Shown here: positions 10,281-60,516 of the stretch, one piece after another | How the letters are laid out: each line of letters opens with the position of its first letter | Position numbering within the stretch: position 1 is the first letter of the stretch | Assembly (NCBI GenBank): GCA_041674405.1 | Contig: JBAYVT010000004.1 | Coordinates: 10,599 to 74,598, forward strand | Source: Patescibacteria group bacterium | GTDB lineage: Bacteria > Patescibacteriota > UBA1384 > XYA2-FULL-43-10 | DNA: 64,000 bases | Reading direction: 5' to 3' | Notes under the pieces: model-generated | Database searches by the model: none | What the model was told of the DNA's origin: nothing | Seen by the model: the letters and a program-made list of their open reading frames with translations, nothing else | Position numbers and translations under genes: made by a program

Positions 10281-10766
10281 ATGTCCGACCGTAATCTTCT
10301 ATGTGCCCGAGAGATTCTTGAGAAGATCTATCTTTCACGGTATATCTTTCTCTCTGGTCTTTCAGGGTACGACACCGAAGCACAATCCGCCATTGGCACC
10401 TTCGTGGTGCCTACATCCGAGCAACTTCGCTACACAGCCGAACAACTCGGCTATGTCTCCGCCACCGAGCGCCACTCGTGCGTCAATCAGCTCGCATATT
10501 CACTCACTGCTCTGCTTGTCCGCGATCATGCCGGGCAATTCGCGTGTTACGATCTCGAGTCATTTCGAGACCTCTCCTCTGGCTTCCAGATGTGGAATAC
10601 CAAGGAGCACTTCGAGCACAAGAAAGTGCTTCCCCGAGACACGGAGTTCGAGATTAGCATGCACGTGACGCGATCTCGAATCAGCCCTCACGGGCTGAGC
10701 GTCGTCGAAGTGGAACTCAACAGGGGCGTCGATGGTTATGTCCATTTCGCCGTACAGGTAGATTAG
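10281..10766 (+). CDS. Hypothetical protein encoded in a GC-rich (about 57%) island
   Basis: The ORF is 10272..10766, but GGGAGG lies 6 nt before the ATG at 10281 (MSDRNLL...). A near-consensus promoter, TTGACA-17-TAATTT, sits at about 10208-10236. The coding GC is far above its flanks. No recognised domain. Confidence 0.5.
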   Translation: MSDRNLLCAREILEKIYLSRYIFLSGLSGYDTEAQSAIGTFVVPTSEQLRYTAEQLGYVSATERHSCVNQLAYSLTALLVRDHAGQFACYDLESFRDLSSGFQMWNTKEHFEHKKVLPRDTEFEISMHVTRSRISPHGLSVVEVELNRGVDGYVHFAVQVD

Positions 10767-12030: not shown

Positions 12031-12316
12031 CGTGCTTCCTCCTCAATGCGGAATTGGCACTAGGCATCCTGCTGTCAGGTTTATTTGGCGCATGAAGTCC
12101 AGCGCCTCCTCTCGTGTGTGATTGACCCTCTAAAGGGCCTTGCTGCGTTTCTGAAACAACCCCACTCGCACAGAAAGTTCTGCAACCACCTCCCTTGAAC
12201 ACTATGAGATTTTCGGCAGGCAGGATTCCCCGATCTATGCCTACCGACAACCATTGCTAAATTGCTGTATTGTTAAATTGCTACCAAAACAATTTAACAG
12301 TTTAACAATGTAACAA

Positions 12317-12601
12317 TTATTTTTTATCTGCCTCTACAGACACAAAAGTTCTTTTGTCTTTATTGCTGTTGAAAGCAACTACTCTTTTCTCTTGAAATTT
12401 GACCATGCCGTCTTTCAGCGCATAAAGCGTATCGTCGCAGCCAATTCCGACATTTGCTCCGGCATGAAATTTGGAACCGCGCTGGCGGACGATTATGCCT
12501 CCGGCAAGGATTTTCTGGTCACCAAAAACTTTGACGCCAAGTCTTTGCGCTCGTGAATCCCGTCCCAGTCTTGTACTACCAGCAGCCTTCTTATGTGCCA
12601 T
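12317..12601 (-). CDS. rpmA: Ribosomal protein L27
   Basis: [29 protein letters not shown]...[17 protein letters not shown] matches L27. The start was taken at MAHKK. Confidence 0.9.
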
Positions 12602-18145: not shown

Positions 18146-19243
18146 TTAAGATTCTGTCATTTGCTTCGCTCTCATGCGAAGCAAAACGATTATCCCTATT
18201 AACAATAATATCAAAATTATTGAAGCAATGATTTTGTTCATGGTTGTCGAACGCAGAGCGACCCAGGCAAAAGCAATCGCAATAACGTAAAGCGACAGGA
18301 CAGCCTCGCGAACAGAAAAGCCAGCGGCCAAAAATCTATGATGAAGATGCGTTTTATCCGGAGTCGTAAAAGGGTTTTTGCCACGTAAAATTCTTCCGCC
18401 GGCCACAAAGAGGCCATCTACTATCGGAAAACCCAATACAAGGAACGCTGTAGCCAATTTACCGCCAGAAATAAGTGGAAGCACTCCCAGTATATAACCC
18501 AAAAACATACTTCCTGCATCCCCCATAAATATTTTTGCCGGCGGAAAATTCCAAAACAGGAACCCTGCAGTTGACCCTGCCAATATTATTGCAATTAGCG
18601 CAGTCGATGGCTGATTTACAGCCAGCGAGATTGAAAGAAGAAAAATGGTAAAGGCGGCAATAGTTGAAATTCCGGAAGCCAATCCGTCGATTCCGTCCAC
18701 GAAATTGATTACGTTCATCATTCCGACAAGCCAGACCAATGTTAGAAGATCGGACCAGAGAGAAAAATGTACCATCGTTCCAGAAACGGAGAAAAGGGGA
18801 ACATAAATCGAATTCAAATTAATTTCACCACCAAACGGATTGGTTAAAGTATCAATTCCGATTCCGCCAGATATCGCAACAATTGCTGCTAAAATTTGAA
18901 AGATTGATTTCTGCCATGCTTTTAGCCCGAAAAGATCATCAAAAAACATCGATATTACAACAAGCGTACTGCCCAATATAATTCCAATAAATTTCGAGTC
19001 CAAACCAAAAACTGCCGAACCGGCAAAGCCAAAGTTGGTTTTAAATACCAGAAGAAAAATGGTCAATGTGATCAAAAATGACAAGAAAATCGCAATTCCC
19101 CCGATCCTGGGAATTGGTTTTTTGTGCACATCGCGTTCCCTAATTTCGGCAAATATTTTTTTGCGGAAACCTAGGGATCTCACAATTCCAGTCGCAAAAA
19201 TCGATAGAACCAGGCTGATAAAAAATCCAAGAAAATAAGTCAT
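18146..19243 (-). CDS. mraY: Phospho-N-acetylmuramoyl-pentapeptide transferase MraY (or a close WecA-family polyprenyl-phosphate HexNAc-1-P transferase)
   Basis: Has the DDLFGL, NVINFVDGIDGLASG and MGDAGSMFLG motifs and a His-rich loop (THLHHRF), in a 365-aa polytopic membrane protein. Confidence 0.7.
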   Translation of the reverse strand: MTYFLGFFISLVLSIFATGIVRSLGFRKKIFAEIRERDVHKKPIPRIGGIAIFLSFLITLTIFLLVFKTNFGFAGSAVFGLDSKFIGIILGSTLVVISMFFDDLFGLKAWQKSIFQILAAIVAISGGIGIDTLTNPFGGEINLNSIYVPLFSVSGTMVHFSLWSDLLTLVWLVGMMNVINFVDGIDGLASGISTIAAFTIFLLSISLAVNQPSTALIAIILAGSTAGFLFWNFPPAKIFMGDAGSMFLGYILGVLPLISGGKLATAFLVLGFPIVDGLFVAGGRILRGKNPFTTPDKTHLHHRFLAAGFSVREAVLSLYVIAIAFAWVALRSTTMNKIIASIILILLLIGIIVLLRMRAKQMTES

Positions 19244-19290
19244 ATTTTGAAATTACCCCACAGAAATGTTACACAGAATGACACAGAAAC
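19244..19290. repeat. Array of three CACAGAA heptamers, forming the downstream flank of the GxxExxY gene
   Basis: ccCCACAGAAatgttaCACAGAAtgaCACAGAAac. Confidence 0.7.
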
Positions 19291-19683
19291 TTATTTTATT
19301 AAACGCTTAACCTTGGCGCCATTCTTGGTAAAAACTATTAATAATCCGACTTGAATTTTTTCCGACGACAAATAGCTAAGGAGTTGTCTAACGTCAGTTT
19401 CATAAATTTCATTTCTGACTTTAAGCTCAACAGCTATTTTCCCTGCCACAAGGAAATCTAAATAATATTTACCGACTTTTTTACCGTTGAATGTAACAAA
19501 TCCGTATTTCTCACGCTGAAATTCAAGTTGTTTTTTTGCAAGTGACTCTGATAACGCATTCTGATAGGTTTTTTCAGACAGCCCATATCCTAGCGCCTTA
19601 TACACCTCGAAAGCACATCCAATAATATTTCTGGTCAGTTCTATCTCAGGATATTCGTCATTATCAAATCGATTTATATTCAT
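19291..19683 (-). CDS. GxxExxY family protein (PD-(D/E)XK-like)
   Basis: The N-terminal TRNIIGCAFEVYKALGYGLSEKTYQNAL pattern is the defining GxxExxY motif. Confidence 0.8.
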   Translation of the reverse strand: MNINRFDNDEYPEIELTRNIIGCAFEVYKALGYGLSEKTYQNALSESLAKKQLEFQREKYGFVTFNGKKVGKYYLDFLVAGKIAVELKVRNEIYETDVRQLLSYLSSEKIQVGLLIVFTKNGAKVKRLIK

Positions 19684-19767
19684 TTCCCCCTTCTGTGTTT
19701 TTCTGTGGACCGTTTTTCTGTGACCGTCCCTTCCGTGTTCTTCTGTGGGTTGTGCTTCTGTGACCGT
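19684..19767. repeat. Array of five TTCTGTG heptamers plus one TTCCGTG (the reverse complement of CACAGAA), forming the upstream flank of the GxxExxY gene
   Basis: tTTCTGTGtttTTCTGTGgaccgtttTTCTGTGaccgtcccTTCCGTGttcTTCTGTGggttgtgcTTCTGTGaccg. Confidence 0.7.
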
Positions 19768-20379
19768 CTACTCGTTGAACATCACGCTATGATCTGACCG
19801 CTTATATTCATCATGAATATCTTCATCAGAAAACCAATGGGTAATCTCATGCTCGGCCTCTTCTGGCGTTTCCGAAGCATGCATGATGTTCTTAATTGCC
19901 CGACCTTCTAGGTTTGCAGCCGCAGGTGAGTCTACTGAAAAATCTCCCCTCACAGTGCCAATTTCAGCCTTGGACGGAAGGGTATTACCAGCAATTTTGC
20001 GCACCATATCAATAGCGTGCACACCCTCGACAATCATTGCAACAACAGGAGCATCAAGGAGATAATCAACCAACCATTTTCGAACCATTTTTCCGGCTTC
20101 TTTCTTTGAATCGGTGCCCATCATTTCTTTTGGATCGATGCCATATTCCTCAAAGACCGTAAAACCTTTGTGCCCGAGCCTTTCTATCCAGGCTTCGTCC
20201 TTTGGGTAATGATTATCGATGTGTTCAAGTGATGGCTTGACCATTTTAAGAGCAACGATTTTCAGCCCGCGATTCTCAAGCCGTTTAATTACTTCGCCAA
20301 CCAATCCCCTCTGTACCCCGTCCGGCTTGACTAGTACGAGCGATCTTTGAATCGCAATCTTTAATTTCTTTTCCGCCAT
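19768..20379 (-). CDS. ndk: Nucleoside diphosphate kinase with a roughly 60-aa extension or insertion
   Basis: RSLVLVKPDGVQRGLVGEVIKRLENRGLKIVALKMV matches the NDK N-terminus. At 203 aa it is longer than the typical 140 aa. Confidence 0.85.
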   Translation of the reverse strand: MAEKKLKIAIQRSLVLVKPDGVQRGLVGEVIKRLENRGLKIVALKMVKPSLEHIDNHYPKDEAWIERLGHKGFTVFEEYGIDPKEMMGTDSKKEAGKMVRKWLVDYLLDAPVVAMIVEGVHAIDMVRKIAGNTLPSKAEIGTVRGDFSVDSPAAANLEGRAIKNIMHASETPEEAEHEITHWFSDEDIHDEYKRSDHSVMFNE

Positions 20380-38543: not shown

Positions 38544-38681
38544 TAAGTTCCTTATTGTTACATTGCTAAATGGTTAAATTGTTATTTTTCAAGTTTGTCA
38601 TTTGTATATTTTATCAAGTAATTTATTGATCGCGGAAGCTTTTGTAAGTGCTCCAAAAATAAAACAATTTAACAATGCGGG

Positions 38682-38915
38682 CTATTTGACTTCGTCAATT
38701 CCGCCACCACTCCATGGATTACATCTTAAAACGCGCCAAAACGCAAGTGCAAGGCCCTTTCCGGCCCCGTATTTCATCACCGCTTGGCGGCCATATTCCG
38801 AACAATGCGGAGTATATTTGCAATATCCGCCTGAAAATCTTGCCGAAAACCAACCGGTGTCAGGAGACAATGTCCGCTGATATAATTCAATAATTTTTAT
38901 AACAATCTTTTTCAT
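38682..38915 (-). CDS. yidD: Membrane protein insertion efficiency factor YidD
   Basis: YQRTLSPDTGWFSARFSGGYCKYTPHCSEYGRQAV...RVLRCNPWSGGGID matches the YidD pattern. Confidence 0.88.
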   Translation of the reverse strand: MKKIVIKIIELYQRTLSPDTGWFSARFSGGYCKYTPHCSEYGRQAVMKYGAGKGLALAFWRVLRCNPWSGGGIDEVK

Positions 38916-39868: not shown

Positions 39869-40048
39869 GTTTGCGCCTCCTGTACCCGAAATTGTACGCC
39901 TGATACCGACAATTCAATATATACTATTTCTCATCAATTGTCAATCTTCTCGAGCACAAAAAAAGAACCCGTGGGGCTCCCAAATACATGATTAAATGGT
40001 TATATTATTATTCTCAACAATTTAGCAATACAGCAATTTAGCAATTTA

Positions 40049-40342: not shown

Positions 40343-40695
40343 AGCAATACAATATATGCGTGCAGGAGTAAGGGTCTTAGGGGGCTAGAGGGCTGCCCCG
40401 CAATTAAGCCCTCTGCCCCCTAATATAATGGCTATTTTATTTGTAGGTTTCTCGGCAAGCTCGAAATGACAAGTGTATTTGAGATTGTCTGCCGTACTAC
40501 GTCAGACAAGGCATTAATCCCGAGCTTGTCGAGGGATTGACTCATTCGACTGTGCTCAGAGTCAATCCAAAAACTTTGAGTAATTTATCACCATTATAGC
40601 CACAGCAATTTATCCCGAGCTTGTCGAGGGATTGACACACCCTGTGGATAACTTGATATAGTTTTTACATAAGATTAATTGCCTTAAGGAACTGA
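40343..40695. promoter_or_regulatory. oriC-associated region upstream of dnaA
   Basis: Near-perfect 14-bp inverted repeat GGGGGCTAGAGGGC ... GCCCTCTGCCCCC. Two copies of ATCCCGAGCTTGTCGAGGGATTGAC (each internally palindromic). DnaA box CTGTGGATAA about 40 bp before the dnaA start. Confidence 0.7.
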
Positions 40696-42084: not shown

Positions 42085-42520
42085 TTTTCCACATCGGTTT
42101 GGAAATAAAAACAGATATTTATTGTAATAACATTAATAATAAGGCCTGTGGATAGTGTGGAAATCTTTAAAAAATGTTTATCACTTTAACAATTTCAATA
42201 AATATCCTGTGAATTAATTAGTGCACAAGCTGTGTCTTTCCTGTGAAAAAAGCTTTGTAAGTTGTTTATAACTTTTTCAATAAATTTTATCTTTGGAATA
42301 ATTCACATAAATATCCACAATTTTCCACAAGAAAAATCTCAGTTATCCACATATCACAAACAAGAAATAAGAAATAAGAAATGTGGTACTACAAAATTAG
42401 CCATTAACCAAAACCAAAATTATCCACCACCCTGTGGAAAACATCAAAAGTAAATATCAAGCAAAAACCAATACATTATCTAATTAACCAGCCAATCAAT
42501 TAACTAAGAATAGAGGAAAA
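42085..42520. promoter_or_regulatory. oriC: dnaA-dnaN intergenic region with multiple DnaA boxes and an AT-rich unwinding element
   Basis: Boxes TGTGGATAG, TTATCCACA (tcagTTATCCACAtat), ATATCCACA, TTATCCACC/CTGTGGAAA. A 3x AAGAAAT tandem within an AT-rich stretch. Confidence 0.8.
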
Positions 42521-43624: not shown

Positions 43625-43760
43625 TAGGAAATTTCATCCACAGAAACTTCACGCAGAAAAGCACAGAAAAACATTCCCGGTAGCCTGTTTCTCCGGAGAG
43701 ATTGGGGTTAAAGGTTCCGTGTGATTCTGTGTAATAATTCTGTGAGGTAAATACATTGCA
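43625..43760. repeat. dnaN-recF spacer carrying inverted CACAGAA / TTCTGTG heptamer arrays
   Basis: catCCACAGAAacttcacGCAGAAaagCACAGAAaaac ... ccgtgtgaTTCTGTGtaataaTTCTGTGagg. Confidence 0.65.
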
Positions 43761-58965: not shown

Positions 58966-60064
58966 AATCTTTATTTAATGCAGGATCGCTATCTGGATCA
59001 TTTGTGGCTTTCGGGTTCACTGGTGGATTGTTAGGTTGGGGAGGTGTTTGCCTGTTCTGTGGCGGTTCATTAATACTTGTGCCGGATTCTTGTGATTGCG
59101 CTTTAGTTTGGGTTTCCGCAGTCTGGCTTTGTGGTGTGGCCGGCTTCTCTTGCGCCTCTGCTGCCGGTGGAGCCGGTGCGGTGCTCGGTGCGTTGGAAGA
59201 ATTTGTGTTTGCGGATACCGTATTGTTTGAAGTCGTCGGCGCTTTCATGTCTCTTTCTGCGTTTTTTTCTATCGCCTGTTGTCTTTCTTCCTGTTCCTTT
59301 TTCTGCTGGGCATTAACTATTTCTGTGTTATCGATTGTAGATTCATCTTCAATCTGGCTGGGCTCGAGAGCCTCGTCTTCTTTGTCTTTTGTGTGTGTAA
59401 CAAAAGCTGAGGCGAAAGTATTTGCTTCTTCTGCAAGCCTTTCCTTGCCGGCAACCTCGGGATTGTACGTGCTGTAAAGAAGCTCAATCACTTCTTGTGT
59501 ATTTAGTTGCTTGCAATGTAATCCGATCGAGCCGAGGCCCTGGGCGACGGTAGTAGCGCGCTGCTTTAATTCGGTTGTGTATCGGGCATAGTCTTCTTCG
59601 GAAACCCTGAGCTGGGCAGTTTCATTATTCTTTTTGAAAAGCTTATCCAATATTCCGCCGTTATTTGTGACCAATGGCTGATAACCGACGGTTACGTAAA
59701 AAGTTTTTTTCATAATATTGGCTAGGTTGATAAGCTGAGAGACGAAGTCGACATAATCTTCTGTTTGCAACTTCAAAAGCTCGTTTTTCTGTTTTTCCGC
59801 CAATTTCTTAATCTTGTTTAAATATGGGGTCAAATCCAGTTTTTTTGATGAAATCAAAATCTCAATCGGAAAATGAAGCGAATTTAAGAAGCTTTGGTAA
59901 TTAAAAATAATGCTATTTTGCTCTTGCTCGCTCTTTAAGTCGAAATTTATAGCAGCAACAGACATGACAATGCGGTATTGCCCGTTTCTCAGAATAACTA
60001 TCCCGTCGCGAATGCCTGCGACCAAAACGTTTTCTTGGGTTGTGGGAGCTTTGACGGTAGCCAT
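58955..60064 (-). CDS. T4SS-associated protein resembling the N-terminal domain of VirB4 (about 230 aa) followed by a Pro/Gln/Thr-rich disordered tail; possibly the 5' part of a split or frameshifted virB4
   Basis: GIRDGIVILRNGQYRIVMSVAAINFDLKSEQEQNSIIFNYQSFLNSLHFPIEILISSKKLDLTPYL fits the VirB4 N-terminal pattern. It overlaps the ATPase ORF by 11 nt in another frame. Confidence 0.45.
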   Translation of the reverse strand: MATVKAPTTQENVLVAGIRDGIVILRNGQYRIVMSVAAINFDLKSEQEQNSIIFNYQSFLNSLHFPIEILISSKKLDLTPYLNKIKKLAEKQKNELLKLQTEDYVDFVSQLINLANIMKKTFYVTVGYQPLVTNNGGILDKLFKKNNETAQLRVSEEDYARYTTELKQRATTVAQGLGSIGLHCKQLNTQEVIELLYSTYNPEVAGKERLAEEANTFASAFVTHTKDKEDEALEPSQIEDESTIDNTEIVNAQQKKEQEERQQAIEKNAERDMKAPTTSNNTVSANTNSSNAPSTAPAPPAAEAQEKPATPQSQTAETQTKAQSQESGTSINEPPQNRQTPPQPNNPPVNPKATNDPDSDPALNKDFGW

Positions 60065-60066
60065 GC

Positions 60067-60516
60067 TTACCTCGTTGCAATATTATTATTTGAAGAATCC
60101 AGCGATTTTGCCATTCTTTCCATCTGCTCGCGGGTTATGTGTTTGGATTCGACATGCGTAGCCGATTCCTTTTCTGGATTTTTGTAAACTTCCACGTCAA
60201 ACCCTGATTCTTCTCTTTGCCAAACGCGCATCCTTGGTTTGCCCATAAAAACAAACAAAGAAGCAAGAAAATGCAAAAAAGGCCGTTCGTTAATTTTAAG
60301 AAATATCAGAGCCAATGTAAAAAGTGCAACCATTATAGCTAAAAACAAGCCAAACATGTTTGGTATCGACATATAGCAGACATACGCCAATCCGCCGCCA
60401 ACGACAGCATAGACAAACTGAAGCATTGTCAGCGGTCCCAAAATGCGATCCTGCATATCTATATTTTGCGGAACCTTGTAACGCAATTTCCCTCGCTCCC
60501 TCCTTTTGGAGTTCAA
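60067..60516 (-). CDS. PrgI-family (VirB3-like) small membrane protein
   Basis: YKVPQNIDMQDRILGPLTMLQFVYAVVGGGLAYVCY followed by a second TM helix, the defining PrgI pattern. It sits directly upstream of virB4, as in Gram-positive conjugation loci. Confidence 0.65.
   Translation of the reverse strand: MNSKRRERGKLRYKVPQNIDMQDRILGPLTMLQFVYAVVGGGLAYVCYMSIPNMFGLFLAIMVALFTLALIFLKINERPFLHFLASLFVFMGKPRMRVWQREESGFDVEVYKNPEKESATHVESKHITREQMERMAKSLDSSNNNIATR

Follow-up and report, generated by a model that had tools for sequence, protein, structure and literature searches.

What is a small nuclease-type gene doing between inverted arrays of a single seven-letter word, and why do the same arrays recur with no gene between them a short distance away, in the spacer between dnaN and recF? 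The question is raised by a 64,000-nucleotide stretch of DNA from a Patescibacteria group bacterium (assembly GCA_041674405.1, contig JBAYVT010000004.1 of 158 kb, positions 10,599 to 74,598), hereafter the window, in which a GxxExxY gene is bracketed by arrays of the heptamer CACAGAA (site 1) and a gene-less counterpart lies in the dnaN-recF spacer (site 2). The unit consists of a PD-(D/E)XK GxxExxY gene of ~125 amino acids (aa) within convergent heptamer arrays, the heptamer being aCRCDGAt across the family and CACAGAA here. It looks like a selfish or mobile combination of gene and repeat that is apparently undescribed. In our judgment there is about an even chance that site 1 is one copy of a widespread unit of a nuclease and its cognate repeat with gene-less derivatives, resembling the partnership of REP-associated tyrosine transposases (RAYTs) with doublets of repetitive extragenic palindromic (REP) sequences (REPINs).

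The arrays are distinctive and not part of a general background. Exact CACAGAA occurs 18 times in the 64 kb against an expectation of 7.7 (standard deviation 2.7), a count that none of 100 shuffles reached, and 12 of the 18 copies fall at two spots, around the GxxExxY gene (19259-19767) and in the dnaN-recF spacer (43639-43744). A scan of the whole window for clusters with up to one mismatch found no third array, which disposes of the concern in an earlier note on this DNA that CACAGAA might be equally dense in all intergenic DNA. The arms are laid out from outside to inside as heptamer-N6/8-heptamer-N3-heptamer, with the long gap outside and the short gap inside; the three-heptamer module spans 30 nucleotides (nt), and its heptamers lie about one helical turn apart.

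At site 1, the earlier description of three CACAGAA copies on one side of the gene and five TTCTGTG copies plus one TTCCGTG on the other holds exactly. The gene lies on the reverse strand (19291-19683), encodes 130 aa, matches PF13366 (8.5e-31) and TIGR04256 (3.2e-31), and has no second copy in the window. Its downstream arm (19259-19288, forward strand) consists of a single module in which all three heptamers are exact CACAGAA (starts 19259, 19272 and 19282; gaps N6 and N3), and it leaves 2 nt to the GxxExxY stop codon on one side and 15 nt to the start codon of a GT4/MraY-like gene on the other. The upstream arm is a 40-nt module in tandem duplicate, its two copies 83% identical and both on the reverse strand. 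The inner copy (19688-19727; heptamers at 19716, 19701 and 19691) has its innermost heptamer adjoining the ribosome-binding site of the gene, GGGGGAA, and the outer copy (19728-19767; heptamers at 19756, 19741 and 19731, the last being CACGGAA) stops 1 nt short of the ndk stop codon at 19768. Both neighbours, ndk (19768-20379) and the GT4/MraY-like gene (18146-19243), are on the same strand as the GxxExxY open reading frame (ORF). When the window cassette is compared with a copy from Parcubacteria (L013), homology starts exactly at the outermost heptamer, 19259. Array length can differ where the protein does not: in two strains with an identical GxxExxY protein (P0021), the upstream array measures ~126 bp (L212:1829-1954) and ~288 bp (L213:2713-3000, a stretch that contains an assembly gap). 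The number of tandem upstream modules therefore differs between strains, suggesting that arrays grow and shrink fast, a parallel to the 40-nt duplication at 19688-19767.

The structure at site 2 is a gene-less derivative of the same design, with two mirrored modules around a 46-nt spacer. The left module, CACAGAA-N6-CGCAGAA-N3-CACAGAA (43639-43668, forward strand; starts 43639, 43652 and 43662), is mirrored by TTCCGTG-N3-TTCTGTG-N6-TTCTGTG (43715-43744, reverse strand; starts 43715, 43725 and 43738), which ends 16 nt before the recF start codon. The 46 nt between them (43669-43714) contain no ORF and bear no resemblance to GxxExxY. The inverted arrays first reported here are thus real, but they number three plus three at one mismatch rather than three plus two, and the inner copies are separated by 46 nt rather than about 60 bp. 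The suggestion that this spacer is an empty target site has to be revised as well: it holds a gene-less copy of the element, and the unoccupied sites of the window are the PrgI|TraC junction (60064-60067) and the yidD|yidC spacer.

The association between gene and heptamer extends far beyond this genome. With a 3-sequence alignment as query, we collected 80 independent metagenomic loci, flanks included, whose GxxExxY relatives are 37-53% identical to the query. An unbiased count of upstream 7-mers at these loci was headed by CACGGAT, ACACGGA, CGCAGAT, ACGCAGA, CGCTGAT, CGCGGAT and CACAGAT, and the top downstream 7-mers were the reverse complements of the upstream words. At least two oriented C[AG]C.GA[ATC] heptamers were present on one side or more in 57 of the 75 loci with both flanks, and on both sides in 38 of 75; loci beyond the 57 carry further variants of the word. 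The two flanks contain on average 2.3 and 2.1 oriented heptamers, compared with 0.39 in distant background sequence. The resulting logo is aCRCDGAt. Its positions 1, 3, 5 and 6 are fixed by the search anchor; 97% of units have a purine at position 2, and C is hardly ever seen at position 4. The information lies within the heptamer, with next to none in the three spacer bases. Successive heptamers start 10 bp apart in 75 cases and 9 bp apart in 39; in the clade of the window the distances are 10 and 13 bp. Because this motif family recurs at metagenomic GxxExxY genes, the CACAGAA arrays of the window are a local version of a family-wide feature.

We further scanned one reference genome per species for the pattern CACAGAA-N5-9-CRCAGAA-N2-4-CACRGAA. 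At least 120 reference-genome stretches contain this triple heptamer, compared with ~16 estimated by chance under the assumption of uniform base composition. Among the matches listed, the lineages include Acidobacteriota (with Vicinamibacterales), Elusimicrobia, Bacteroidota, Verrucomicrobiota (Opitutaceae/Puniceicoccaceae), Lentisphaerota (Victivallales/Lentisphaeria) and the Patescibacteria lineages Berkel-, Parcu-, Uhr-, Woese- and Saccharibacteria, and several genomes supply many loci each. Of the neighbouring arrays in the same set, 24 pairs are convergent, with CACAGAA followed by TTCTGTG, and 7 are divergent. In 19 of the 24 convergent pairs no gene is enclosed and the arms are 2-177 bp apart; in five of the 24 they are 319-723 bp apart. 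A profile search of the ORFs in these matches detected GxxExxY homologues in seven loci (L046, L047, L074, L078, L091, L123 and a frameshifted copy in L013), in every case directly against or between the arrays. No GxxExxY remnants were found in the longer gene-less spacers of L047, L059, L015, L103, L105 and L014.

Some pattern matches were set aside. Thr-Glu-rich coding repeats (ACAGAA encodes Thr-Glu) in long ORFs are probably unrelated (L006:2231-2340, L063:1468-1553 and L111:3427-4429); they sit in ORFs of Parcubacteria and Moranbacteria, and any census that relies on the pattern would count them falsely. The match in L108 is a tandem repeat of the 9-mer TTCTGTGCC within an ORF, and isolated triple heptamers in Serratia, Streptomyces and others are likewise unrelated. 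The array in L006 was also considered as a site shared with the window and was rejected, as the gene downstream of it is not orthologous to the GT4 gene of the window.

Comparing GxxExxY locations and flanks across relatives, as the earlier note had proposed, shows that the gene and its arrays occur as one unit at different places. The closest homologues, 50-69% identical and all from Patescibacteria, are found at seven different host junctions when that of the window is included, with arrays at all seven: ndk|GT4 in the window, PrgI|TraC-like (L204-L207), YbaB|Pth (L208), signal peptidase|S20 (L211), LytR|hypothetical (L212-L215), UDG|RNase J (L216) and YidD|YidC (L219). At all seven the gene has the same orientation as the host gene upstream of it. 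Two of these junctions are present in the window without the unit. The PrgI-like|TraC-like junction (60064-60067, reverse strand), outside the element, consists of a stop codon, 2 nt and a start codon, and the same junction in L204-L207 holds a GxxExxY gene with arrays, ~600 bp in all; the PrgI-like and TraC-like proteins of the window are 79% and 59% identical to their L204 counterparts. In L204 (2835-2862), the first upstream heptamers encode the last residues and stop of the PrgI-like protein (ACC ACA GAA AGA TTA CAC AGA TAG), indicating that insertion remodelled the host C-terminus relative to the copy in the window. The second unoccupied junction, the yidD|yidC spacer (38544-38684, reverse strand), also outside the element, lacks a heptamer array, and in L219 it holds a GxxExxY gene with arrays. 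Gene-less forms are dispersed as well. Two of them, with the same module architecture, lie near oriC in L224, at rnpA|dnaA and just upstream of dnaN, and one metagenome-assembled genome (MAG) of Elusimicrobia has gene-less elements of 60-96 bp on three contigs that are 90-96% identical, which points to recent copying.

Phased direct repeats close to start codons could alternatively be operators for a host transcription factor or nucleoid protein, with GxxExxY and recF as members of one regulon, comparable to OmpR/PhoB-type, CtsR and MraZ sites, where 7-mers repeat every 10-11 bp. The grouping of heptamers in threes with a period of 9-10 bp, the conservation of the core across distantly related proteins and the position of arrays immediately upstream of start codons agree with such sites, and the phasing indeed argues that the heptamers are bound by protein. 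Evidence against a host regulon, however, comes from the arrays that flank the gene at both ends, even beyond its stop codon, from the near-identical 60-96 bp repeats dispersed elsewhere, and from the way the arrays follow the GxxExxY gene to unrelated junctions and across phyla. Site 2 also speaks against it: no CRCNGAW array was found in the dnaN-recF spacers of three relatives (L220, L222 and L224) whose DnaN is 62-78% identical, so that the arrays are not retained at orthologous promoters. The idea in the earlier note of a binding-site array for one regulator is therefore sustained as to protein binding and abandoned as to a host regulon, which we regard as improbable. The spacers of these relatives hold inverted arrays of other words, namely CAATTTT in L220 (9105-9222), CAATAACCAA in L222 (2922-3021) and AACTAAAG / CTTAAGTT in L224 (5105-5259), and either the dnaN-recF spacer attracts such elements as a hot spot or it requires a hairpin-like structure.

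A role at the level of RNA deserves more weight, even if we consider it unlikely overall. The upstream and downstream arrays would pair in the transcript, forming a long stem around the ORF or an interrupted hairpin in the gene-less form; the stem would be cut by a double-strand RNase such as RNase III, or would stabilise or insulate the message, and a selfish small gene would thus be harmless inside host operons, as are the ORF-bearing intervening sequences (IVSs) of 23S rRNA. As RNA, the whole dnaN-recF spacer is predicted to fold into a single interrupted hairpin that pairs the two arms (-40.9 kcal/mol, z = -3.7), and in the site 1 transcript the 5' array is predicted to pair with the 3' array in a closing stem (z = -2.3). 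Cassettes invariably read in the direction of the host gene upstream of them and lack promoter and terminator consensus, and a search of the arrays for such signals found none above shuffled expectation. The other-word arrays in the dnaN-recF spacers of relatives, and the inverted word arrays that likewise bracket 23S_rRNA_IVP genes in relatives, would also suit an RNA structure, and there is precedent in the IVS of Coxiella, a selfish element with an ORF that is removed by way of RNase III (PMC4990558). Neither site matched a known RNA family in Rfam, even at E <=10. Against pairing as the function of the arrays, the heptamer is conserved as a word, beyond complementarity, across phyla and GC contents. 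Mirrored heptamers are 36% alike, compared with 40% for non-mirrored heptamers, 39% for heptamers within one arm and 9.6% between loci, which gives no support to register-specific pairing of the arms. The sequences between heptamers are usually not complementary between arms, and the strict 9-10 bp period suits binding to B-DNA better than 7-bp stems separated by 3x3 loops. The equal likeness of mirrored, non-mirrored and within-arm heptamers suggests a locus-specific mix of tolerated variants that is homogenised over both arms, and together with the period this agrees with a protein that recognises the heptamers from one face of the double helix.

Does the encoded protein fit such a task? The ORF at 19291-19683 scores 108.1 bits against TIGR04256 (cut-off 35) and 107.2 bits against PF13366 (cut-off 22), and these full-length profile matches place it in the GxxExxY protein (TIGR04256) / PDDEXK_3 (PF13366) family. 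The catalytic D...ExK residues D76, E86 and K88, as well as E37, Y40 and Q100, are invariant among homologues in two alignments. The AlphaFold2 model (predicted local distance difference test 90.5) most resembles Cas4 SSO0001, LHK-Exo, MGME1 and lambda exonuclease among PDB folds found with Foldseek (E-values 2e-4 to 5e-3), and its core alpha-beta fold, together with the catalytic residues, puts the protein in the PD-(D/E)XK superfamily. PD-(D/E)XK is the sole domain found, and the protein is predicted to be a minimal nuclease core of this type. The family is large, with 27,498 representatives in a profile search of 50% identity clusters (E <=1e-3). Many members are ~265 aa long, and about one-third of the best 150 representatives are 250-295 aa with two matched stretches; in such members two GxxExxY domains are fused in tandem, which suggests that the protein works as a dimer, and a few domains lie inside proteins of ~900 aa. 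A 2012 survey of the PD-(D/E)XK superfamily lists GxxExxY/PDDEXK_3 as "Unknown" with "multiple transfers" (PMC3424549). Our full-text literature searches found no published account of GxxExxY biology or of the association between gene and heptamer. The gene gave no PADLOC defence-system match and matched a single PHROG of unknown function.

The gene and its heptamers are both under selection. Among syntenic orthologues, nonsynonymous divergence (pN) is 0.09-0.30 while synonymous divergence (pS) reaches 0.72-0.89, and dN/dS is ~0.04 where measurable. These orthologues, whose synonymous sites are saturated, have kept their heptamers intact while the intergenic bases beside them have diverged. 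Low pN at saturated pS, together with the intact heptamers, indicates constraint on gene and word alike.

Presence and absence of a small nuclease gene at the same junctions (PrgI|TraC and yidD|yidC) also recalls free-standing homing endonuclease genes such as phage T4 seg/mob, and I-Ssp6803I is an example of a homing endonuclease with a PD-(D/E)XK fold. The target of GxxExxY would in that case be the gene-less inverted array, cut where its two arms lie near each other; repair from a gene-carrying copy would put the gene between the arms, the arrays would serve as short homology, and occupied copies would be immune with their arms ~400 bp apart. The co-directional position of the gene between conserved host genes, the identical arm architecture of gene-less and gene-carrying forms and the catalytic residues, which appear intact in the sequence, are all compatible with homing. 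The arms of gene-less forms, however, can be anywhere from 2 to 177 bp apart, which sits uneasily with a fixed cleavage geometry, and homing leaves unexplained how gene-less arrays reach new sites. Homing genes, moreover, are not known to have bracketing repeat arrays or gene-less repeat derivatives, and they tend to pass through a cycle of gain, decay and loss, whereas GxxExxY is retained in synteny over long periods under strong purifying selection at one site. We consider homing quite unlikely.

The window contains the likely origin of replication, and the arrays could in principle be a DnaA-box variant tied to it, or else meaningless chance or low-complexity sequence. The earlier note had pointed to a DnaA-box-like TCATCCACA, and this is indeed present at 43633-43641, where it overlaps the first heptamer of the dnaN-recF spacer and matches the DnaA box at 8/9 positions. 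It is the single such match overlapping the array, and not one of several matches to TTATCCACA as in a DnaA-box cluster. Some pattern matches elsewhere, being the coding Thr-Glu repeats mentioned above, would also suit a chance origin. Canonical boxes, however, cluster elsewhere: the dnaA-dnaN spacer (42085-42520) contains eight or more DnaA boxes that are canonical or nearly so (TTTTCCACA, TGTGGATAG, TGTGGAAAT, TATCCACA, TTATCCACA, TTATCCACC and TGTGGAAAA), the cumulative GC skew has its minimum near 39-42 kb of the window, the gene order dnaA, dnaN, recF, dciA is the usual one, and this spacer is likely oriC. Canonical boxes fill it and CACAGAA is a different word, hence not a DnaA box, and the overlap with TCATCCACA looks incidental. 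A chance or low-complexity origin is rejected because no shuffle reached the observed count, the window has no further clusters and the motif accompanies this gene family in different phyla. Both explanations are therefore hardly credible.

Two other repeats were seen in the window. The short word CAATTTARCAAT forms an inverted pair at 12253-12318 and a direct pair upstream of dnaA (40018-40045), with a single copy in the yidD|yidC spacer (38665-38676). A direct repeat of ~26 nt, (A)ATCCCGAGCTTGTCGAGGGATTGAC, occurs twice upstream of dnaA (40516-40541 and 40612-40637), and its second copy is followed by the DnaA box TGTGGATAA at ~40644.

How might a nuclease and its cognate repeat have spread as a unit? 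The nuclease, probably as a dimer or higher oligomer, would bind the phased heptamers on one DNA face at both arms, bring the arms together and cut or recombine at the arms or immediately beside them. New intergenic sites could thereby receive copies of the unit and, through action in trans, of its gene-less derivatives, after which most copies would be inherited vertically for long periods under purifying selection, as with RAYT/REPINs. Several considerations weigh against this interpretation. The role of the GxxExxY protein as recogniser of the heptamer and catalyst of movement is an inference. The heptamer core is conserved across proteins that are only 35-40% identical, and a conserved host factor could explain this equally well. 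No target-site duplication was found at the window sites, in L224, in L204 versus the window or in the Elusimicrobia copies, and no defined cleavage points were seen at any junction examined. Occupied sites are often conserved over deep divergence, suggesting that movement is rare, and differential loss could lie behind some cases of presence and absence. The other-word inverted arrays at the dnaN-recF spacer of relatives hint at a word-independent structural role of that spacer. Finally, the co-occurrence of gene-less arrays and GxxExxY genes in one genome was looked at in this window and a few MAGs.

These observations refine the original proposal of a small mobile cassette or miniature inverted-repeat transposable element (MITE). 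A cassette is supported, since gene and arrays form one unit at different junctions and gene-less companions are widespread. A classical cut-and-paste MITE of the DDE transposon type is not, because no fixed-length target-site duplications were found at the junctions examined, although inverted ends are present. The most far-reaching version of the proposal, that GxxExxY proteins are the enzymes of an unrecognised, phylum-spanning class of mobile DNA, mobilising a ~0.5-kb cassette and gene-less doublets via phased heptamers, is tentative and in our view somewhat doubtful. If true, it would add a third bacterial mechanism that pairs a gene with a miniature repeat, beside the DDE transposon/MITE and Y1 RAYT/REPIN systems, and a new enzyme class among the systems that seed bacterial genomes with miniature repeats, with a bearing on annotation, on operon structure in small genomes and possibly on sequence-specific DNA tools. 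The link between a large family and a specific, conserved and phased DNA motif provides a concrete, testable substrate, and it accounts for palindromic repeats of a kind that is seen between genes in Acidobacteriota, Elusimicrobia, Patescibacteria and Bacteroidota.

Among known systems, several transposons have ends composed of multiple protein-binding sites, including the TnsB sites of Tn7, L1-3/R1-3 of Mu, IS21 and the subterminal repeats of plant CACTA/En-Spm elements. The unit described here resembles them and their MITEs in having inverted ends made of several direct copies of a short motif, with gene-less derivatives that keep only the ends. In contrast, it has no DDE transposase, shows no target-site duplication at the junctions examined, measures only ~0.5 kb and carries a single gene of 130 aa. 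Its ends read 5'-CAC...GTG-3', unlike the TG...CA typical of Mu and Tn7.

The IVSs in the 23S rRNA of Coxiella and Leptospira, which encode an S23p / four-helix-bundle protein (PMC4990558), offer a second comparison. They also have a small ORF within inverted repeats able to close a stem, they are viewed as tolerated selfish insertions, and the 23S_rRNA_IVP and GxxExxY families co-occur as small inserts in these Patescibacteria genomes. However, both sites in the window lie between protein-coding genes and not within an rRNA helix, the arms are phased conserved heptamers and not a unique stem, and the protein has a nuclease fold. Four-helix-bundle genes (PF05635, 23S_rRNA_IVP) at L207:4560-5090 and L211:1870-2390 are bracketed by inverted arrays of short words unlike the heptamer (AAATCACAA / TTGTGATTT in L207; TATCGT / ACGATA in L211), and small inserted genes with flanking word arrays of their own may be a general pattern in these genomes.

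The nearest analogue of the nuclease and heptamer unit is the REPIN-RAYT system of REP doublets and REP-associated tyrosine transposases (PMC3116915, PMC3337134, bioRxiv 10.1101/2022.05.22.493013). In both, a short repeat occurs as inverted copies on either side of a small nuclease-type gene and, scattered between genes, as inverted doublets that could fold into a hairpin; transmission is mostly vertical, the gene is under purifying selection, and the benefit to the host is unclear. The two differ in their enzymes, a predicted minimal PD-(D/E)XK nuclease here and an HUH/Y1 (IS200/IS605-like) transposase in RAYTs, and in their arms, which here comprise at least three phased heptamers, whereas a REP is one palindrome of 20-40 nt with a GTAG or CGTC tag. 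RAYTs are typically single-copy, whereas GxxExxY genes appear to be usually multi-copy, and the heptamer core of the latter, unlike REP sequences, is common to several phyla.

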